Assembly (NCBI GenBank): GCA_963842525.1
Contig: CAWJGT010000006.1
Span: forward strand, 1-64,000
DNA: 64,000 nt
Direction: 5' to 3'
From: an uncultured Holophagales bacterium
GTDB lineage: Bacteria > Acidobacteriota > Thermoanaerobaculia > Multivoradales > UBA5704
The notes beneath the pieces were generated by a model. The model was not told where the DNA came from. It was given only the letters and a program-made list of their open reading frames with translations, and made no database searches. Positions 38,701 through 51,750 of the stretch are shown here, one piece after another. How positions within the stretch are numbered: position 1 is the stretch's first letter; the number at the start of each line of letters is the position of its first letter. The translations under genes were made by a program, and so were the position numbers.

Positions 38701-39488
38701 GCGAAGGAGCCGTCCGGTTGCTGCACCTTCGTCGTCGCCAGGTCGTGCACCAGCTTGCCGGCGGCGGGGAACTCCCGGCCCTTGTCCCGCGCCGGGTTGA
38801 CGATCGCCTCCCGCGCCGCGGCGAGCCCCAGCAGGTCGATGCGGAAGCGGTTCTTGAGATGGGTCGGCACCCGGTCGGCGTACGGATCGAGGGGCGCCAG
38901 GTAGTCCTCGCGCAGCAGGAAGAGCGCCCAGAGAAGTGGATTGTGCAGCAGCTCGCCGAGCTGGTTGAAAAACTCCTTCTTGGCCGCCACGGCCAAGGGA
39001 TCGACGGTGAGCACCTCTTCGAACTGATCGAAGATCAGGACGGCGCCCGGCGGCGAGCCGGGCTTCTTCGGCCGCCGGGTGGCGTACTCGGCGAGAGTGA
39101 GGCCGGCGAGCTCCGCCGCCGGACGGCGCAGCCTCTGCGGAATCCCCTCCTCGAAACCGAGGATCGCGCTGTGCACGTAGCGGTTGACCCTCACCTCCCC
39201 CGGCTCCTGGTTCACCCGGGTGGGCCGCCAGACGTCGAACGTTTCGCGCAGACGCGGGATGAGGCCGGCCTGGACCAGCGAGCTCTTGCCGGCGCCGGAC
39301 GGCGAATGGAGGAGGACGATGCGCTCGGCGCTCAGCAGGAAATAGAGCGCGGCGATCTCCTCGTCGCGCCCCCACAACCGTTCGCCGAGCTCGATCGGGC
39401 GCGGCCCGACATAGGGATTCCGCGTCGCGGACGCCATCTTCGCCCAGGTCTCGTCCAGGGCGTTGCGCACTGCCTCAGAACCAGCCAC
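35792..39488 (-). CDS. STAND-class (nSTAND1-like) NTPase + TM helix + WD40 propellers, copy A (frameshift near 38,150)
   Basis: NPYVGPRP..LWGRD, SPSGAGKSS, IFDQFEEV, YELAHDRLI; about 14 ASFSPDG..VTAS.D.TAR.WD repeats. Confidence 0.9.
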
Positions 39489-41607
39489 CGCTCATCACCG
39501 CCGTTTTGGAGACCTCTTCCTCATCCTCTGCGGCCGTCTTCACGAGCTGCGATTTCAGCTCTTTCAGAAAATCGGCCGCGCTTCCCCAGTAGATGTCGAT
39601 CCGCGGCTCGCCGCGCCCGCGCCCGGCGCTGCGGTCGGCGCCAAAGTAGCTCTGCAGATACTTCCGTGCCCGCTCGACATCGGCCTTGCTGTGCACCTCG
39701 GGGTCGACCTGGACGCCGACGTGGGAGAACTGCTTGAGGTTGGCGCAACCCTCGAGGGTCATGATCAGCCGGAAGAGGACGCGAAACGTCCAGCCGTCGA
39801 GGGGAAAACCGAGGAACAGCAGCGAGCTTTCGGTGAGGGAGCCGCGCACCACGGTGGGCACCAGCTTGTAGGCTGCTGTGGCGATCAGGTAGTCGAAGAA
39901 GTCGTCCTCGGTCAAGACCAGGGAGTCCGGCTGGCCGAAGACGCCGAAGACTTGATAGACGATCGGCTTCTCGGCGCTCGGCTTGCCCTCGAAACGCGGC
40001 TCGCGGGGGTGGTTCTCCTCCGTCGGCCGCCAGTTGCTGGCGAGCAGGGTCGGCTGCCGGCCGGCCGCCTGCAGGGACTTGTAGAGCAGCGTCTCGGCGC
40101 TGGCATTGATGTAGATCCTGCCCGGCAGCTCGGCGAGGATGTGATAGGGGCAGGTCTCATCGCTGCGCTGGCCGGCGGTGTCTGCGACGATGGCATCGAG
40201 GATCTCGGGCAGCCGGCGGCCTCTGAGGGTATCGTCCAGGAGGCTGTTGCGCTTCAGGATCTGCGCACGGAGGTGCTTGAGCACGGCGGCCTGGGCGTAC
40301 TCCCGGTCCTGGTCGATGCTCAGGTACTGCGTCACTTTGGCCAGGTCGGTGCTCGCTTCGTCGTCCAGGGGGAACTTCTCGGCATCGGCCAGACGGCCGG
40401 CGAGCTCCCGGGTGGTGCCGATGAGGGTCTCCCCGAAGTCCGGACCGAGGATGGGGATGAACTTGCCTTTCCGCACCCGGCGGCAGATCGACTTCCACTT
40501 GGCGAAGTCGCCGGTTCCGGAGAAGCCCGGCTCGTACCAGATGCGTCCGCTCTTGAGCCGCAGATAGAGAGCCGGCATCCAGGCGTCGGGGCGCTCGCGC
40601 ACCGTCCCTCGCGCCACGGCCAGGGCACGGTCGATCTGGCCGTCCTTCTCCAGCTCGGAGAAGAAGACGGGAATGGCCGTCTTCACCGTCTCCATGCTGA
40701 TCCGGCCCTGCATCGCCACGACTGCCGGCACTCCCGCCTCGGCCAGGTGCGGAGCGAGCGCCGCCTGGGTGGAGCCGTCCGCCGTGCCGCCGCTCTCGCA
40801 GGAGGCGAGGACCACCAGCCGCGGCGGCGCCAGCAGCTCGCGGATCCGCTCGGCCAGTGCGGATCCCTCGACCCGGGCGACGTTGCCTTCGTCGTCCTGA
40901 AGGAACAGGTAGGGGGCCTGGCCGCGCGCCAGAGCGCCATGGCAGACCAGGTAGAGGATGTCGATGGCTCCCCCCTCGGCGCGCAACCGGGCCGCGAGGC
41001 GCTCGAGGGTCAACGGCTCGTCGCGGCCCAGCACGGTGCTGCGGATGTCCCCGAGGCCCTCCTGCGCGCGGGCGATCTCGCCGTCGCGGTCGACGGGAGC
41101 CAATTGATAGCGGGCGAGGTCGGGCGGCGCCGCGACCGCGATCACAGCCCGGAGGTCGGATTTCGGCCGCAGCTTCACCGGTCGCCAGTCCTGGCTGACC
41201 ATGAAGCGGGAGAAGAGGATCTTTTGCGACGTCCCCAGCGGAGCCTTCGTCTCCGGATCGGTGAGCAGCTCCCAGCGTACCGCGTTGAGCTCGGGGGCGG
41301 TGGGCCCCACCAGCAGCCGCAGGCGCAAGAGGTGGTTGCTCGCCTCCACCGCCGTCCTGGCCCGGCAATAGAGGAGGCGAACCTCCTCGGCGGCGAAGAC
41401 CTGCGCGGCGAGCGCCTCGCCATAGGCCCGCGCGTCCTGTTGCAGCGCCAGAAGCTCCGCGAGGTCCAAGGCGGCCAGCCCGCTCACCGGCGGAACCTCG
41501 GCCTCGCTCGCGGGATGGGTGAAGCGCAGATCCACCTGGTAGGCGTCGGCGGTCAGCCGGCGGAAGCCGACTTCGAGCTCGGCATACAGGTTGATGGCCG
41601 TGCTCAT
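39475..41607 (-). CDS. CHAT protease + SIR2-like domain, copy A
   Basis: VRWELLTDP, YLVCHG, VLASCESG, PILGPD, LVLTEDDF, LLFLGF; paralog of 32900-35032. Confidence 0.85.
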   Translation of the reverse strand: MSTAINLYAELEVGFRRLTADAYQVDLRFTHPASEAEVPPVSGLAALDLAELLALQQDARAYGEALAAQVFAAEEVRLLYCRARTAVEASNHLLRLRLLVGPTAPELNAVRWELLTDPETKAPLGTSQKILFSRFMVSQDWRPVKLRPKSDLRAVIAVAAPPDLARYQLAPVDRDGEIARAQEGLGDIRSTVLGRDEPLTLERLAARLRAEGGAIDILYLVCHGALARGQAPYLFLQDDEGNVARVEGSALAERIRELLAPPRLVVLASCESGGTADGSTQAALAPHLAEAGVPAVVAMQGRISMETVKTAIPVFFSELEKDGQIDRALAVARGTVRERPDAWMPALYLRLKSGRIWYEPGFSGTGDFAKWKSICRRVRKGKFIPILGPDFGETLIGTTRELAGRLADAEKFPLDDEASTDLAKVTQYLSIDQDREYAQAAVLKHLRAQILKRNSLLDDTLRGRRLPEILDAIVADTAGQRSDETCPYHILAELPGRIYINASAETLLYKSLQAAGRQPTLLASNWRPTEENHPREPRFEGKPSAEKPIVYQVFGVFGQPDSLVLTEDDFFDYLIATAAYKLVPTVVRGSLTESSLLFLGFPLDGWTFRVLFRLIMTLEGCANLKQFSHVGVQVDPEVHSKADVERARKYLQSYFGADRSAGRGRGEPRIDIYWGSAADFLKELKSQLVKTAAEDEEEVSKTAVMSGGWF

Positions 41608-41894: not shown

Positions 41895-42305
41895 TCAGTC
41901 GTCTTCGAATTCGTCCAACTCGTCTGCCCCCGGTCCTTCCAGCAGACGGTCCATCTCGCGGCGGTCCTTCTTGGTGGGGCGGCCGGTTCCGGGGTCGCGG
42001 AGCATGGGCGGCCGGCGGAGCAGCCGCGCGTAGGGGTCCGGCGGCGGCTTGGGTGGGCTCTGATCCTCGTAGAGCGCCGCGGCCTCGGCCTTGGGGACGG
42101 GGCGGTCCTGCAGCTCCTGGACGATGAGAATCCGCTGCCAGTCCCCCTGCTTCAGCTCGATCCGGTCTCCCAGGACGAGGTGGCGGTGCGGCTTGGCGGG
42201 CTGGCCGTTGACCAGGACCCGCCCGAGGTCGCAGGCGTGCGTCGCCTTCGTGCGCGCCTTGAACATCCGCGCGACCTGGAGCCATTTGTCGAGCCGGACG
42301 GACAT
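41895..42305 (-). CDS. hslR: S4-domain ribosome-associated heat-shock protein Hsp15
   Basis: VRLDKWLQVARMFKART.A, VNGQPAKP, GRPTKKDRR. Confidence 0.9.
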   Translation of the reverse strand: MSVRLDKWLQVARMFKARTKATHACDLGRVLVNGQPAKPHRHLVLGDRIELKQGDWQRILIVQELQDRPVPKAEAAALYEDQSPPKPPPDPYARLLRRPPMLRDPGTGRPTKKDRREMDRLLEGPGADELDEFEDD

Positions 42306-42513
42306 GCGGCAAGTCTAGCGCAGGGCGCGCTTGGTCCTCGTGGAGATTCGCAATGGTCCCGGGGCGTGCAGCCTCCCTGCCCCAGATCCTTCGCTACACT
42401 CAGGATGATACGACAGGATACGACAGGTCTGGTGTCCAGGGACAGACCTTGTCAGCTCGCTAGAAGGCCGCATTGGAGAGCCGAAATTGAGACACTTATT
42501 TCGTGACGAGCCC

Positions 42514-43968
42514 TTACCATGTCATCGCCATCTTGTTTTCCTTATTCCATGTGGCTTCGGCCTGCTCGAGCGACACCCGTGCCGACGGTTGGTAGAGGGC
42601 AAACAGCTTGCGCAGGTCCAGCGGGTCGATGACCAACTCCCTCTGCAGCCAGTGCTCCAAGGAATCGCCGCGACTGTCACACCTCACCTGGATTGAGCTC
42701 CCGTTCCAGGAGAGGAAGATCGACCCGAACTGCACGGCCAGCTCGTAGATCAGCTTTCCTACCGGTAAACTCATGGGAAGATGCTTCTCGTCGTAGCGGA
42801 TCTGGGGTGGCACGAGGTCGGCTCCCGAGGTGATCGACCTTCTCCCGTTGGCCGGCGGGACATAGAGCGAGTGCAGCCCCTCCGCCTGGCCGAGAGCGCT
42901 GTTCGACTTATCCCCGGTGAGGAAGAACGCGCCCTTGTGGAAGCTGAGCTGGCGCAGGAAGCCCTTGAACTGCTCGCGGATGAGCGTGTCGCCGAACGAA
43001 CCCTTCGGCGAGAAGCGGACGCTGGGAACCGCTCGTTTGACGTCGTCGCGCAGCCCTCGCAACTCGACCCGGGTGTCGAGGACCGGATCGGTCTCGCCGG
43101 TGATCAGCAGGCTGACCCCACGAAGGTCTTTGGCGAGATCGAGCTCGAGAATCTCCTGGAGGGCCCTGTATCCCATCCTTCCGATGTCGCTCAGCTCTCC
43201 TTTTTCGCCGCGGCTGTTGGCCGCCTGCTCGAGCTCGTGCATGACCGTGCTAGGCACGACGAGGAGGATCCAGTTGGGCGATGCGTTGGAACGGCAGGTG
43301 AAGTTCAGGGAGTCCAGAATCTGCTGCGTGACCACGCAGCCATAGAGGATGTTCGTGTCCAGCCCCAAGACGACGTCGTCGTACTGGCCGAGCCTGCCCG
43401 CGAGCTCGCGCCAGCGCTCCGAAAACAGAAAGCCCGTCCGGTAGAGGGCTTCGGTCACCAGGTCGCGCGGACGCTTCTTCTGCTCTTCCGGAGATGTCCC
43501 TCCGGAAACACCGTCGAGGTCCTCGCCTCCACGACAGTTGAATCCGCCCGGCGCGGGGGTGATCCGGAGCAGACTTCTCCCCTGGGAGGTGCCGACCACG
43601 ATCTGGCCCTGGGTCGCCAGCAGGTGGTCGAGGAGGAGCTGGTAGACCGGAAAGCTCACGAACTGGCCGTCGCCGGCCGGCAAGGATTGCGGATCGGCGG
43701 CATCGCTGGCGGAGCCGCCGGGGCGCAGGTGGAAGGAGGAGCAGGTGAAGACGGACTCACCAGAGCAGAGCGGCCCGATGTCCGCATCCGCCAGAGTAGT
43801 TCCGAAACCTGCGCTGAGAATGCGGTAGACCTCAGCGGCTTTCGAGATGCAGTCGCCGACCGAGACCAAGTCCAACTCCTCAGCTCCCCGGTTGAAGAGC
43901 GACAGACAGCTCAGCACGTACTCCATCGTCCGCTTGGCACCGACCGTCACTGCGGGTGTTTGATCCAT
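42514..43968 (-). CDS. Alba-like N-terminal domain + PIN ribonuclease domain + unknown C-terminal domain
   Basis: The N-terminus VTVGAKRTMEYVLSCLSLFNRGAEELDLVSVGDCISKAAEV matches the archaeal Alba pattern; PIN acidic motifs LGLDTNILY, VPSTVMHELE, GDTLI, FLTGDK. Confidence 0.75.
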   Translation of the reverse strand: MDQTPAVTVGAKRTMEYVLSCLSLFNRGAEELDLVSVGDCISKAAEVYRILSAGFGTTLADADIGPLCSGESVFTCSSFHLRPGGSASDAADPQSLPAGDGQFVSFPVYQLLLDHLLATQGQIVVGTSQGRSLLRITPAPGGFNCRGGEDLDGVSGGTSPEEQKKRPRDLVTEALYRTGFLFSERWRELAGRLGQYDDVVLGLDTNILYGCVVTQQILDSLNFTCRSNASPNWILLVVPSTVMHELEQAANSRGEKGELSDIGRMGYRALQEILELDLAKDLRGVSLLITGETDPVLDTRVELRGLRDDVKRAVPSVRFSPKGSFGDTLIREQFKGFLRQLSFHKGAFFLTGDKSNSALGQAEGLHSLYVPPANGRRSITSGADLVPPQIRYDEKHLPMSLPVGKLIYELAVQFGSIFLSWNGSSIQVRCDSRGDSLEHWLQRELVIDPLDLRKLFALYQPSARVSLEQAEATWNKENKMAMTW

Positions 43969-43986
43969 GGCTTTCTCCGGCCGTGC

Positions 43987-45250
43987 CTAGTACGCCTGGA
44001 GCATCTCGGCCTGAGGCTCCGTAACGGGGACCCCGGCGGAGGGGAGATCGCGGAAGGAGAGCCTCCGATTGACTGAATCGACATCCACGACCTCGACGGT
44101 CAGGGGGTCTCCCACCCGTAGATCCTGGCTGAACAAACGATCGCGAAGCAAAGGAGTCATCCTGGTGTTGTGCAGCATCCCGGTCACTTGCCGATCCTCA
44201 TGGTTGATTTTGACCAGAGCAAAGCCCTTTTCTGGGACCGCCTTGTCGACACGCCCCTCGAGCATTTGCCCCCTACGGAACGGCCAAGCGGGGTCGCCTT
44301 TCGCCTGGTCCCTGGGAATCTCGATGAATTGAAGTTTCACCTCACGTTTCGCCTGGTTGATTTCGACGACCCGTGCTTTGATCTCAATCCCGGCCATTAC
44401 GTCTCGCGAGAGCTGCCCCTGCGGGATGAACCCGTGGATTCCGTAATTCATGTTTACCCAGGCGCCGGTCCCCTCACGGACGTTGACCACAACACTCCTG
44501 AACACCTCGTTGGTCGGGAACTCCTTCTCCAGCTTGGGCCAAGGGTTTTCTCCAAAAGTCAGAGAGTACTTCTGCTGGCCGTTGGAATCGACGACGAAGG
44601 CGCCTTTGAGCTTCCTTGCCGGTCTGCAGGACTCTGGTCAGATCCCTGGGGTTACGAGTCCAGGAGAAGTCCTCGACGCTCAGAAAGCCCTTGCGGCCGT
44701 CCCGTGCCTCGACCGTGGCGAACTCCGGCATCACCGACAAAACCCTGGCGGGGATCTCTTCGATCCCTGCCCCGATGAGTGGCATGAGCATCGCCTCGGC
44801 AGGGGGCTCTTTGCGAGCAGCATCGAGATTTTTTTGCAGATCGCGGGTCAACTGCAAGAGGCCCCTGCCCTCCTTGTATTGAATCTGGACGAACTGGCCA
44901 AGGTCGACCGGGACATCGTCCGGGTACATCGTGAGGATGAGAATTCGTTTGCCAATCACGTGGGCCAAGCCGACCTCATAGAGAACGTTGGGGCTCCGAC
45001 TCGTGAGGTCCGCGATGATCACTTCCGCTTCCTGAATGCCTTTCCACAATCGCTCGAGAAGAGTGCTGGCGCCGTATATTTCGTCTGCGCGGAGGGGGAC
45101 CATGCCAACTTCTCTGACCGTCTCCTCGATGACGTCTTTATAGTGCTCATCCCAGTCGAATTTCTGACCATCGCGTAACTCTTGTACGCCGTACGGCATG
45201 ATGACGAAACAGTTTCCCTTCTGCGGCCAACAATTTCTCGCAAATGGCAT
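43987..45250 (-). CDS. NDT/TIR-like Rossmannoid domain + three S1 (OB-fold) RNA-binding domains (1-nt insertion near 44,614)
   Basis: CFVIMPYG...RADE...IIADLTSRSPNVLYEVGLAH...VPVDL; S1 repeats (ARVLSVMPEFATVE..KGFL; ENPW..VVVNVREGTGAWV..GFIP; GRVDKAVPEKGFALV..GMLH). Removing one base gives GKKLKGAFVVDSN and joins the two ORFs. Confidence 0.78.
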
Positions 45251-45261
45251 GAGCGTTTCCT

Positions 45262-45520
45262 CACCTTAAATGGCACGTGCCGACGCACCTGCCGGCACGT
45301 GCCCTGGTTGAGCAGCTCGGAGGCGCGGAAGCCGCGGTGCGAGGCTCGGTGCAAGTCCAGAGAGCTGCCTCCGAAGGTAATGTCAAAAAGTCCAAGGGTC
45401 CGAAGAAGTAATTATTCCAATATGTAGGTCCTGCGTGATGCTCTGAATAGAACCCGAAATCCGAAGGTGTCCGATATGCGTGAATTTGTGGTGCTTCGGT
45501 CGGAGGCAGCTCTCTGGGCT
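45262..45520 (-). ncRNA. Candidate structured leader or ncRNA
   Basis: Perfect 18-bp inverted repeat (45357-45374 / 45500-45517) enclosing 125 nt with about 10 TTYGGAC-like motifs; an 11-bp hairpin (45272-45303) sits just before the RBS. Confidence 0.45.
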
Positions 45521-45655
45521 CGTCAGTTCTCCTTTCGGCGATCTCTATCGGCCGCATCAGGCGACCTGTTCTAATAGACACAGGTGCGCTCGGCTTTGTT
45601 GAGAAGAAGACGAGGAGAATGCAGCGGGAAGCAGGCTCCGGGCCACTGGAAATGG

Positions 45656-47051
45656 CTACCGGTTCGGGACGGAGGCGCCCAATCGCAGGGCACGGACCAC
45701 GAACGACGCCCGCTCCAGCGCCCGCGCGATCGCGCCCGGCCCGGGCGGCCGTTCGAACGAGTGGCGCATAGTCGCCGAGGCGCTGCGGCCAGGGATCGGG
45801 AGGAGGTGGAGGGATCAGGCCGCCGACCGCGGCGAAGAAGAGGAGCCAGCCCGCGAGAGCCGCGGCCACGCAAGGCACGGTGCGCAGGGCGGGCCGCCGG
45901 GCCGGGTGGAGCCAAGCCGCGAAACCCAGGGCGAGGGGGGGCAGGGCGTCTATCAGGAACCGCTGGCCGTAGCCGCCCCGGTTCGGCCACTCCGACCACC
46001 AGCCGTGGAGCACGGCGACCGCGAGGAACCAGACCAGGGCGACGAAGCCCCACCCAAGTGACCGGCGGGAGATCTCGCGAGAGGCCAGGAGGATCAGCCC
46101 CGCCGCGGCGAAGAGAAGAGCCGGATGGAAGAGGAAGAGGCCGTGGACCGGCGCGAAGAGCACGTTCCACGGCGACGCCGCGGTCACCACCCACCGGCCG
46201 CCATAGGGCGGAGCGAGCCAGCTCCCGAAACAGGCCCGCCACCAGAACGGCAGGGCCAGCAGCGGGAGGACGAAGCCGGCGAGGACCAGGAGGACCTCAC
46301 CCCCGGCCCCTCTCCCATCTCCCTTCCGCCCCCCGCCGGGAGAGGGGAGAAAAACGACCGCTGCCAATGCCGGCGGCAGCAGGGCGACCGCGCTGTAGCG
46401 CACCAGGACCGCGACTCCGATCACCATGCCTGCGACGAAGGCGAGCCGGCGGCTCCCGGTCTCCCGCTGCCGGACCAGGAGGAGCAGCAGGAGGCCAGCC
46501 AGCGCGAACGTCGGCGCGTGGGTCATCCCCACCAGCGCATAGAAGAGGAGCGGTCCGCCGAAGAAGGTGAGGGAGACTGCCGCCGCCGCGGTCCGCTCCG
46601 GGACGCCGAGCCGGAGCAGGGCCAGGGCGGTCCAGGTGAGCCCCAGGAGAGTGGCCAGGTTGCGCGCGAGGACGATCAGGGCGGCGCTCAGGAAGACCTC
46701 GCGCGGGACCCGCCCCGCCGGCGGCAGCTCGGCGCCGCCCGCGAGGAGCCCGTCCGGCAGCAGGCGGTCGAGCGTCCGGCCGGCAAGGAACGGCAGGGCG
46801 TCCAGCAGCGGGCCTCCGGGCGGGTACTGCGAGACGAGGTGCCCGTCGCGGCCACCGACCAGCCCGTTCACCACGCCGCGGTGGTCGTCCTCCAGCCAGA
46901 GGTCGCCGTCGTCGAGCACCGACCCGAGGACGGCGAAGCCCGCCCAGCCGTCGCCGCCCAGGCCGCGGTCGAAAACCAGCATGTGGAGCGCCGCGGCCAG
47001 GAGGGCGGCGGCGATCCAGCCGGAACGGAAGAGGTCGCGCAAGGTCGGCAT
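45656..47051 (-). CDS. Polytopic membrane protein, GT-C glycosyltransferase-like (frameshift near 45,750)
   Basis: Luminal loop GGDG..GDLWLEDD..SQYPPG, many TM helices, YGQRFLIDALP; the corrected C-terminus is ERASFVVRALRLGASVPNR*. Confidence 0.6.
46295..46349 (+). repeat. REP-like element inside a coding sequence
   Basis: CCTCACCCCCGGCCCCTCTCCC...GGGAGAGGGGAG, read in frame as LPSPGGGRKGDGRGAGGE. Confidence 0.8.
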
Positions 47052-47091
47052 CAGGCCCCTGATAGAATCATAGAGAGGATCGACCACCCCC

Positions 47092-47454
47092 ATGCGCATT
47101 CCACCCGAGGAGTTCGAGGCCCTCGTCGAAAAGGCCCTGGAGGACCTGCCGGACGATTTCGCCGACCTGCTCGACAACGTGGTGGTGATGATCGAAGACG
47201 AGCCCGACCCCGAGGATCTCGAGTCCATGGGCCTCTCCCCGGACGAAGAGATCTTCGGCCTCTACCACGGCTGGAACCGCCTGCACCGCGACTCCCTGTA
47301 CAGCGGCGCACTGCCGGACCGGGTCCTCATCTACCGCGGGCCGATCCTCCGCCACTGCCAGAACCGCCGCGAGGTCATCCGCGAGGTCCGCGACACGGTC
47401 GTCCACGAGCTCGGTCACTACTTCGGCATGGAAGAAGAGGACATGCCGTATTGA
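47092..47454 (+). CDS. Zincin-like minimal metallopeptidase
   Basis: FGLYHG, LPDRVLIYRGPI, TVVHELGHYFGM. Confidence 0.9.
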   Translation: MRIPPEEFEALVEKALEDLPDDFADLLDNVVVMIEDEPDPEDLESMGLSPDEEIFGLYHGWNRLHRDSLYSGALPDRVLIYRGPILRHCQNRREVIREVRDTVVHELGHYFGMEEEDMPY

Positions 47455-47468
47455 ATTGATCCCGGGCC

Positions 47469-48945
47469 TCACTCCTCCGCCCGCCCGAACAGCAGCTCGA
47501 CCAGCGGCCGGTCTTCCTGGCGGCAGAAGACGTAGACATGGTCTCCCGGCAGGAGCACCGTCTCGCCGCGCGGTGCGATCAGCTCGGTGCCGCGCACCAT
47601 GAGCAGGATCGAGGCGCGGTCCGGGAAGGGGATGTCCGCCACCGAAACGCCGCAGACCGGCAGCGCCGGGCCCACGTAGTACGACAGGATCTGGCCGTCG
47701 AGTGTCTGGGTCGAGCTGATCTCCAGCACGGCCGGCGAGGGGGGCGAGCCCTGGGTGCCCAGCCCCAGGCGGCGGGCGGCCCAGGCCACGGTGCCGCCGG
47801 GCAGGAAAGCGCCCACCACGACGACACAGAAGACGATGTCGAAGAGGGTCTCGGAGCCTTGCACGCCGGCGAGCACCGGGAACATCGCGAGGATGATCGG
47901 CACCGCGCCGCGCAGCCCGACCCAGCCGATGAAGAGGGTCTCCCGCAGTGGAAAGCGGAAAGGCAGCAGGCAGAGCAGCGCCAGGAGAGGCCGGGCCACG
48001 AAGCTGAGCAGCAGGGCGATGGCCATGCCGATCCCCGCCACCCCGAGGATGCGCAGAGGGAAGGACAGCAGCCCGAGGACCAGGAACATCGCCACCTGGC
48101 AGAACCAGGCGACCGCGTCATGGAAGCGGCGCACGCCGGTCTGGTACGGGAAGCTCGCCGTTGCCCAGCACGATGCCGGCGATGTAGACCGCGAGGAAGC
48201 CGCTGCCGTCGAGCACCGTGGGCAACCCGAAGGTGACCAGGGCGAGGGCAAGGGTGAAGACCGGATAGAGTCCGCCTGCCGGCAGCCGGCTCCAGCGCAG
48301 CAGGAAACGGCCGGCAAAGCCGAGCGCCACGCCGGCGGCGCCGCCGACGAGGAGCTGGAAGGGGACGTGCAGAAGGACCGCGGCGTCGGGGCTCCGCTCC
48401 CCGGTCGCGATCTGGGTCAGCGCCAGGGTGAGGATCACCGCCATGGGGTCGTTGAGCCCCGACTCGAGCTCCAGCGTGGCGCCGACGCGCTCGCGGAGCT
48501 GCAGGCCGCTCGCCCGCAGCACCGAGAAGACCGCGGCCGCGTCGGTCGATGAGACGATGGCGCCGAGCAGGAACGCCAGGCTCCAGGGCAGGCCGAGGAG
48601 ATGGGCGCCCACGGCGACCAGGGCGGCGATGCCCGCCACACCGGCGGTGGCCAGGGTGGCAGCAGGCCAGACGAAGCGCCGGAACGTGGCCAGCGGCGTG
48701 TTGAGGCCGCCGTCGAAGAGGATCAGGGCGAGGGCGATCGTGCCGAGACGGAAGCTGAGGCGGTAGTCCTCGAAGGGGACGATCCCCACCCCCTCCGAGC
48801 CGGCCAGCATGCCCACGGCGATGAACAGCAGGAAGACCGGTACCCCGAACCGCGCCGAGGTCCGGCTGAACAGCACGCTGACCGCCAGCAGCAGCCCGAC
48901 CAGGAGCAGAAGCAGGGCGGTGGTGTGGAGGTCGGGCTGGGTCAC
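47469..48945 (-). CDS. K+/H+ antiporter (CvrA/NhaP2) with TrkA-C (frameshift near 48,150)
   Basis: GMLAGSEG, ILFDGGL, SSTDAAAVF, LELESGLNDPMAV, GWVGLRGAVPIILA. Confidence 0.9.
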
Positions 48946-51304: not shown

Positions 51305-51365
51305 GGGGTAAGCATACCCCTCCCCGACCCTCCCCCGCGCGTGGAAATTCCTGCGCGAGCCCTGG

Positions 51366-51508
51366 CCCCTCACCCCCGGCCCCTCTCCCATCCGCACTCC
51401 CTTCCCCCGGGAGAGGGGAGAAATGCATGATCAGGAAGATCCTGAGTGGGGGCTCCCCTCTCCCGGGCGGGTGTGAGTGCGGGTGGGAGAGGGGCCGGGG
51501 GTGAGGGG
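51366..51508. repeat. Inverted pair of REP-like elements
   Basis: Copy at 51366-51420 and reverse-complement copy at 51453-51508. Confidence 0.85.
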
Positions 51509-51750
51509 CCAAGGCGACGCCCCAGCAGAGTTTTCCAAACACCCTCTAAGTGGTCGGAGGTGACGCCATCGCGGGGACCCGCCGGGGAGGGGGCTTCTGG
51601 CGCGCCGATCACGCCAGATTGGCACGTTTCCTCCTGTAGACCCCTGAGCTTCCGGGCGCCTTCCCTCGGCACCGGATTTGCTCCAGGCCGCTCCGGTGAG
51701 TATCCTCACCACGCTTCGCATTCCAGCAAGACGAGAAGAGGAGACCTTCG

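Follow-up and report, generated by a model that had tools for sequence, protein, structure and literature searches.

A conserved long-range stem ahead of a TIR-like-S1/Alba-PIN gene cassette from Thermoanaerobaculia, a candidate cis-acting leader RNA

The stretch of DNA analyzed here (the window) comprises 64,000 nucleotides of contig CAWJGT010000006.1 from an uncultured Holophagales bacterium and contains a two-gene cassette that is preceded by a long inverted repeat. The question raised by this locus is what such a repeat does in front of two genes and whether it works as RNA or as DNA. The cassette consists of a conserved block, a leader of ~350 nt, a gene for a protein with a nucleoside 2-deoxyribosyltransferase (NDT)/TIR-like domain and three S1 domains (TIR-S1), and a gene for an Alba-PIN protein, all on the same strand. 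All coordinates are window coordinates, and the sense strand of the element is the minus strand. As set out below, the repeat may be the core of a ~350-nt structured, non-coding 5′ leader RNA that acts in cis on the cassette mRNA, a reading to which we assign a probability of about one half. Its defining feature is a helix that is conserved in sequence as well as in pairing and that closes a G-poor, poorly structured and fast-evolving interior.

The initial annotation of this DNA, which was made from the sequence alone, had described a leader with a perfect 18-bp closing stem around a 125-nt AT-richer loop, followed by two GC hairpins before the ribosome-binding site (RBS). These structural details hold. 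The 18-nt arms CCAGAGAGCTGCCTCCGA (45517 to 45500) and TCGGAGGCAGCTCTCTGG (45374 to 45357) are exact reverse complements and form the perfect core of the stem (45500-45517 with 45357-45374). An inverted-repeat search yielded arms of 21 nt (45354-45374 and 45500-45520; 95% complementarity, 125 nt spacing), and beyond the perfect core the stem of the window copy can be extended to 24 bp. By repeat search and alignment, the 5′ arm, which includes GCCUCCGA, spans 45500..45523 and the 3′ arm, which includes UCGGAGGC, spans 45351..45374 (both on the minus strand). The enclosed interior (45375..45499, minus strand) is 125 nt long with a GC content of 0.45, compared to 0.70-0.78 in the host DNA on either side (genome ~70% GC). 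Both GC hairpins between the 3′ arm and the RBS are predicted in the minimum free energy (MFE) fold, one of them with 11-bp perfect arms. The 316-nt leader has an MFE of -121.6 kcal/mol compared to -98.0 +/- 4.9 kcal/mol for shuffled sequences (z = -4.85; none of 100 shuffles was as good), and the long stem is present in the MFE structure. When the whole 64 kb were searched for inverted repeats of at least 16 nt within 400 nt, nine were found, among which the stem of the element ranks third in length.

Homologous cassettes were collected by means of the two proteins. For the protein of the first gene, 48 relatives were found in the protein collection at E <= 0.001, and ~35 metagenomic homologues were closer. 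Long matches to this gene occurred at eight loci of the genome collection and at seven of the metagenome collection. According to tblastn, an Alba-PIN gene adjoins the TIR-S1 gene in 4 of 13 loci, namely downstream in L010, L011, and L017 and upstream in L093. Including the window, there are four cassettes with TIR-S1 followed by Alba-PIN (the window, L017, L010, and L011), from three metagenome-assembled genomes of Thermoanaerobaculia. L010 and L011 lie in one genome, and L017, which is the same place as L003, lies in G003, a genome of the window's genus. All four retrieved same-order cassettes carry the leader. The proposed non-coding leader, with its closing stem upstream of the RBS, is borne out by these homologous loci, as none of the four lacks the stem, and the position of the element (between upstream block and RBS) and its orientation are kept in each of them. 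The upstream and downstream flanks are unrelated among all four cassettes, which therefore stand in four different contexts. Since the similarity among them begins at CTCAACAAA and ends at the stop codon of the Alba-PIN gene while the flanks are unrelated, the leader moves with the two genes as one unit. Judged by these sequence boundaries, the cassette is a small, horizontally moving two-gene unit.

The four leaders were aligned and a consensus fold was calculated with RNAalifold. It consists of a single 24-pair helix, without any pairs in the interior. Over the four loci, 92 of the 96 cells of this helix pair, with G-U in seven cells, whereas the remaining four are A-C or C-A. Thirteen of the 24 pairs are invariant, six vary on one side only (giving the seven G-U cells), and two show double changes (A-U to U-A and G-C to U-A). 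When the partner strand was slid by 1-3 columns, pairing fell to 30-48%. The long stem is found in the MFE fold of all four leaders, the helix length ranges from 22 to 25 bp, and the length of the interior is nearly constant (124-132 nt). Pairwise identity among the loci amounts to 75-96% in the arms, 22-48% in the interior, 15-51% in the post-stem segment, and 53-82% in the upstream block, compared to 57-81% for the N-terminal ~213 residues of the first protein over the same four loci. Thus, the arms are held at the sequence level as well as in their pairing. Further variants come from soil DNA: three runs contain 8-11% of the element's words, and Logan contigs provided the partial variants X1, X2, and X3. 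X3 (~95% identity over 45305-45575) leaves both arms unchanged. In X1 and X2, the similarity of which to the window stops inside the interior, the outer C.A and G.U positions of the window read C-G and G-C, which results in a perfect 24-bp helix. On the basis of four sequences, the evidence that the inverted repeat is under selection is good, and the evidence for its action as RNA is fair. The RNA-level role is mainly suggested by position and orientation, that is from the conserved block to the RBS with no terminator in between, to which the excess of G-U cells adds weakly.

The element occurs exclusively with the cassette. In the 9.95-Mb source genome (G000), the only match to the 191-nt core is the element itself, which does away with the concern that it could be a dispersed miniature inverted-repeat transposable element (MITE) found elsewhere in the genome. 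In the genomes of L010/L011 and L017 (G782, G783), the stem pattern is likewise present at cassette loci only. A two-arm pattern with up to two mismatches matched in 2 of 401 genomes of the class, G000 and G209, the latter at one GC-rich site with two mismatches. Because a reversed-pattern control matched six times in five genomes, the G209 match is at chance level. A covariance model of the core matched only its four training loci within 1.07 Mb of retrieved loci, 1 of 151 genomes of the order (G000), and 1 of 41 genomes around G782 (G782 itself). In viral contigs, the 16-nt arm pattern gave two matches, both without the second arm and hence regarded as chance, and no Alba-PIN was found there. 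In plasmids, neither Alba-PIN nor the leader was found. The metagenomic locus L093 presents the reverse gene order, Alba-PIN then TIR-S1. A canonical TTGACA-17-TATACT promoter is present there, and in the A-rich leader of ~330 nt (1000-1350) a long-range stem of 11-12 bp, formed by GGGAGGGG and CCCCUCC, encloses ~165 nt. L093 was rejected as support for the element, with a fold z-score of -0.27, only trivial k-mers in common with the window family, and no sequence relation.

The interior differs from the stem in its conservation. It is G-poor (18% G), has no conserved fold, and in the window is no more structured than shuffled sequences (z = -0.36). Selection for a lack of structure finds no support, as z ranges from -0.36 to +1.59 across the loci. 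About ten UUYGGAC-like motifs had been proposed to fill this region. A local enrichment does exist in the window, where the strict form TYGGA occurs five times (0.5 expected), a count that none of 1000 dinucleotide shuffles attains, and L017 shows TTGAC four times compared to 0.9. Neither TYGGA nor TTGAC is enriched in L010 or L011, and of the motifs originally listed, TTCAGAG, GCAGGAC, and TTTGAC fit only a very loose post hoc pattern. For GGA, the observed numbers and the shuffle means are 6 and 3.4 in the window (P = 0.03), 1 and 1.1 in L017, 5 and 3.6 in L010, and 4 and 2.6 in L011. The P values of all these motifs are optimistic because the patterns were chosen after looking. One window motif (45391) is altered in the 95%-identical X3 contig, and the only interior motif that recurs among the loci is a CTTKGAC..TGACA stretch beside the 3′ arm. 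A family-wide motif array was therefore rejected, since enrichment of TYGGA, TTNGAC, and GGA is limited to the window or L017.

Around the stem, further parts of the leader could be delineated, all on the minus strand. The upstream conserved block, CTCAACAAA-N12/13-GTGTCTATTAG (45571..45603), is a candidate promoter. Between this block and the long stem, the MFE folds predict a small hairpin (45536..45555), which is weakly conserved with three consensus pairs. The stem is followed by a post-stem segment (45304..45350) with a hairpin, a conserved YUCGCACC (45336-45343), and a third copy of the core sequence, GCCUCCGA (45317-45324). According to the alignment, the YUCGCACC/third-copy segment is conserved in the window, L017, and L010. 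The third copy stands 42 nt after the 3′ arm and is able to pair with 45367-45374 over 8 nt (100%); it is present in the window and L017 and reads CCUCCGAG in L010. When the 5′ arm was removed in silico, the alternative helix of 3′ arm and third copy was predicted in three of the four loci. Directly 5′ of the RBS, there is the GC hairpin with the 11-bp perfect arms (45272..45303; MFE fold and repeat search), which lacks a U-tract. L017 and L010 have a hairpin of different sequence at the same place. The RBS of the first gene, AAGGTGAGG, is located at 45259-45267 and the ATG at 45248-45250. An intrinsic terminator scan found no terminator-like site between the long stem and the RBS, which would fit with co-transcription of the leader and the first gene.

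How such a leader might work is suggested by the proteins encoded downstream of it. S1 domains bind single strands, Alba domains bind duplex or structured nucleic acid, and PIN domains cut. The proposal that the leader is read rests on these modules, which are suited to a duplex and a single strand, and on the presence of an RNase III gene in the source genome; its processing, the binding of proteins to it, and the sense in which expression would be regulated are putative. In this view, a double-strand-specific factor, either the host RNase III or the cassette's own Alba-PIN, would recognize or process the long duplex, whereas the S1 domains would land on the single-stranded interior as on a platform. 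Together, they could provide a feedback or gating device that limits or times the expression of two potentially toxic enzymes. If the 5′ arm were cut off or displaced, the 3′ arm could re-pair with the third core copy and in this way define the processed 5′ end.

Several observations weigh against the cis-acting leader RNA. The covariation of the stem is suggestive but not proof, as there are four sequences from one bacterial class, 13 of the 24 pairs are invariant, and 20 of 500 column shuffles reach the observed level. The wobbles give only a weak hint of the strand, with seven G-U cells compared to four A-C cells, which would be G-U on the other strand. In a sigma-70 consensus scan of the leader region no promoter was recognized, for which reason the promoter role of the 45571-45603 block is putative. 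The transcription start is likewise putative, as is a single transcript that carries both arms. With regard to a switch, removal of the 5′ arm did not alter the predicted RBS accessibility in a consistent manner across the loci. Furthermore, the element was not found, by alignment or covariance model, at TIR-S1 genes with other partners. The only other Alba-PIN carrier among 401 genomes of the phylum, G681, has this gene standing alone, and its upstream region is without the element and folds no better than shuffles (z = 0.00). Neither protein family alone thus needs the element. Finally, the first gene is frameshifted in the source genome, so that the window copy of the cassette may be decaying.

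Instead of acting in cis, the leader might be a trans-acting third component, that is, an RNA antitoxin, guard, or scaffold that keeps the NDT/TIR-like enzyme and the PIN nuclease inactive, or assembles them in a single RNP, until infection removes or alters the RNA. The interior would bind the S1 domains and the helix the Alba domain, and in its mode of action the RNA would resemble a type III antitoxin or a Y RNA, although it would belong to neither family. We consider this possible but on the unlikely side. It would fit with the finding that the cassette is devoid of a gene for a protein antitoxin or sensor, whereas distant TIR-S1 homologues adjoin NACHT NTPases, that the RNA-binding modules of both proteins suit duplex and single-stranded RNA, that the arm sequence is conserved beyond the needs of pairing, that the element and the gene pair strictly go together (4/4), and that the G-poor interior does not exceed shuffles in its degree of structure. 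However, neither a terminator nor any other sign of a separate RNA was detected, tandem repeats are absent, and the interior motifs are not conserved. A further and rather doubtful extension would make the leader the RNA subunit of a new defence module. CCUCC:GGAGG presents the letters of the anti-Shine-Dalgarno:Shine-Dalgarno pairing, and this duplex together with the pyrimidine-rich strand could serve as a translation-initiation decoy or as a Y-RNA-like scaffold. Such a leader would dock the S1-like domains and the Alba domain and keep both enzymes silent until phage-induced loss, cleavage, or competition of the RNA, which would amount to a guard RNA that is free of repeats and of a protein antitoxin.

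It could also be that the inverted repeat functions at the DNA level, either as a MITE-like relic, as a recombination or cruciform site for mobility, or as two operator half-sites. Elements of this kind typically appear as AT-rich DNA flanked by a long inverted repeat, the cassette changes its genomic context, covariation of the arms would be equally expected for a dimeric DNA-binding protein, and the asymmetry of the wobbles (7 vs. 4) is weak. Nevertheless, we regard this as improbable, because there is one copy per cassette and none elsewhere in the three carrier genomes, nor, with the chance-level site in G209 set aside, in the 400 further genomes of the class that were searched by pattern or in the 150 + 40 other genomes that were searched with the covariance model. 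The arms are not terminal but lie ~80 nt within the cassette, no target-site duplication accompanies them (flanks ...GACGAG/CCAGAG... and ...CTCTGG/ACTTGC..., without a direct repeat), and no recombinase or transposase was identified among the open reading frames (ORFs) whose domains were checked. The arms are also far better kept than the interior while the proteins are 57-81% identical, and therefore the repeat is not a decaying relic. An integron attC site was dropped as a reading, as RYYYAAC is matched at the block by L011 alone and visual inspection showed no complementary R′ site. A small-molecule riboswitch or an RNA thermometer for the operon would agree with the 5′ untranslated position and with the alternative pairing that is available to the 3′ arm. 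We think that this is very unlikely, since the interior, which would be the expected ligand pocket, is the least conserved part (22-48% identity) and is without a conserved fold, since Rfam gives no match, and since a GC-rich helix of 22-25 bp is not expected to melt in the physiological temperature range. Translation of the region, finally, is hardly credible. The 98-codon ORF (45557-45261) that the initial annotation had offered as an alternative turned out to be the tail of a 655-codon open frame (45261-47228), and in the window one sense frame is indeed open across the whole leader. The same frame is interrupted by two to three stops in each of L017, L010, and L011 and is thus open in one of the four loci. 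Furthermore, agreement between the peptides is confined to the stretches in which the arms are conserved at the DNA level, and the interior lengths and indels differ by non-multiples of three. The leader is hence non-coding.

The element resembles several known RNAs in layout. A covariance scan against Rfam 15 (42000-47500, E up to 10) returned nine weak matches, all of them far below the gathering scores and none overlapping 45262-45520. ARAGORN detected no tRNA or tmRNA in the element, and nothing relevant on the motif turned up among the hits of a full-text literature search, which was followed at the level of search results. Three comparisons that were drawn in the initial annotation did not withstand closer analysis. 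With the retron msr-msd, the element has in common that inverted arms (here 18-24 bp) surround a variable region beside defence-type effector genes, which concerns the layout only. Retron a1/a2 arms are far shorter, and no reverse transcriptase gene adjoins the element: of the 18 RVT_1 matches in the genome none lies in the window (C6:1-64000), and the nearest one is at C6:149873, ~149.9 kb on the contig. The RVT_1 matches are distributed over contigs C3, C9, C23, C6, and others, and several have identical scores, as multi-copy elements such as group II introns would. CsrB/RsmZ sponges resemble the window copy in its several GGA motifs. However, GGA is not enriched in three of the four loci (L017, L010, and L011), and CsrA (PF02599) has no match in G000 (96% complete), whereas the profile was positive in three control genomes. 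The RNAs of type III toxin-antitoxin pairs (ToxI, CptI, TenpI) are similar in that a non-coding RNA lies directly upstream of, and in the same direction as, the gene for an RNA-acting enzyme, in a module of defence-like character, and in that there is no protein antitoxin. Their repeat unit is ~34-45 nt, whereas the element has no ~30-45-nt tandem repeats and no terminator before the gene. Tandem Repeats Finder recognized only a 10-nt period inside the GC hairpin of the leader. Moreover, the downstream proteins are NDT/TIR-like-S1 and Alba-PIN and not toxins of the ToxN/AbiQ/CptN type.

Two other groups are of interest here. Y RNA and YrlA, the scaffolds of Ro-PNPase, also have a long closing stem and a pyrimidine-rich, weakly structured loop, which could tether an S1-domain protein. 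In contrast to them, the element has neither an Rfam Y RNA match nor a tRNA-like module and is situated in an mRNA leader and not in a separate gene, and no Ro/Rsr was found among the cassette genes whose domains were checked. Long-range stems that are cut by RNase III are known from the pnp leader, the rnc leader, and rRNA precursor stems. They share with the element a nearly perfect duplex of about two turns, the strands of which come from distant parts of a 5′ leader that precedes the gene of an S1-domain RNA-binding enzyme. There is no sequence relation, and cleavage of the duplex is putative in the present case; its length of 22-25 bp and the RNase III encoded in the genome would make it a possible substrate. 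We know of no counterpart, among RNase III-processed leaders, of the enclosed 125-nt interior and the third core copy. With its location between a putative promoter and the RBS, its conserved structure, and its non-coding sequence, the element has the general appearance of a cis-acting leader. If real, it would represent an undescribed structured RNA motif of limited spread that is tied one-to-one to an uncharacterized gene pair. Defence systems with dedicated non-coding RNAs are few and comprise CRISPR, retrons, type III toxin-antitoxin pairs, and some reverse-transcriptase systems. If the leader is recognized by the RNA-binding domains of its own system, this would add a mechanism to the list and would give a handle on the function of the TIR-like-S1 and Alba-PIN proteins. 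Its value is that it connects, in a way open to testing, an RNA with two effector proteins that bind RNA, on a base of four loci in uncultured Thermoanaerobaculia, with the first gene broken in the source genome.

In order to deduce what the cassette encodes, domain searches were carried out. The first gene (43987..45250, minus strand) codes for an N-terminal NDT/DNPH1-like (TIR-like) domain and three S1 domains and is split into two overlapping frames (44474-45250 and 43987-44505). The N-domain matches the PADLOC TIR effector model (1e-6), and in a PDB profile search its family profile matches the DNPH1/Rcl N-glycosidases of the nucleoside 2-deoxyribosyltransferase fold (2e-6). The region of the three S1 domains is closest to ribosomal protein S1 (1e-39, PDB profile search). 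DNA alignment attributed the split to one extra base relative to L017 within ~44612-44640, and the profile matches accordingly lie in different frames (44612-45250 and 44020-44622). Intact homologues are single proteins of 402-450 aa, so the split could be a real pseudogene or an assembly error. The second gene (42514..43968, minus strand) encodes an Alba + PIN protein of 484 aa, the Alba domain of which matches solved Alba proteins (1e-10, PDB profile search). In the protein collection, 79 relatives were found. Across 27 aligned relatives, four to five acidic residues of the PIN domain are invariant (D204, E245, E247, D327, and D353). Three relatives (P0087, P0090, and P0091; 580-619 aa) contain a fused cold-shock domain, in which case the OB-fold single-strand binder is part of the same protein and not of a partner.

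The cassette lies in a low-GC island (~42.3-45.6 kb, GC 0.52-0.69), which is opened by the leader element. Its upstream neighbour is the gene for a GT39/LA_3751-like membrane protein on the minus strand, to which the 655-codon open frame mentioned above belongs. This frame has no stop until 45261 and runs 114 codons into the inserted cassette (boundary at 45603), and the insertion of the cassette may have displaced the stop codon of the GT39-like gene. Farther upstream lies the longest inverted repeat of the window (51359-51515), which is very GC- and polypyrimidine-rich, with 53-nt arms that are 87% complementary and 51 nt apart. Distant TIR-S1 homologues adjoin NACHT-pentapeptide NTPases in L012, L015, and L092 and a ThsB-type TIR in L013, which fits with TIR-like-S1 being an effector or sensor module that is reused across several conflict systems. 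The cassette itself is probably a conflict or defence module, as its domains (NDT/TIR-like, S1, Alba, and PIN) and the neighbours (CHAT-SIR2 and caspase-like, as well as NACHT and ThsB-TIR beside relatives) point to anti-phage conflict. At L011, it is a caspase-like gene that follows the cassette. In the window, the cassette is followed by an S4-domain gene and then by a CHAT-SIR2 gene, the latter of which suggests a defence island. This gene (39475-41607, minus strand) starts ~900 nt downstream of the cassette and encodes a CHAT protease + SIR2-like protein of 710 aa with PADLOC matches to the ThsA STALD and SAVED_CHAT models.

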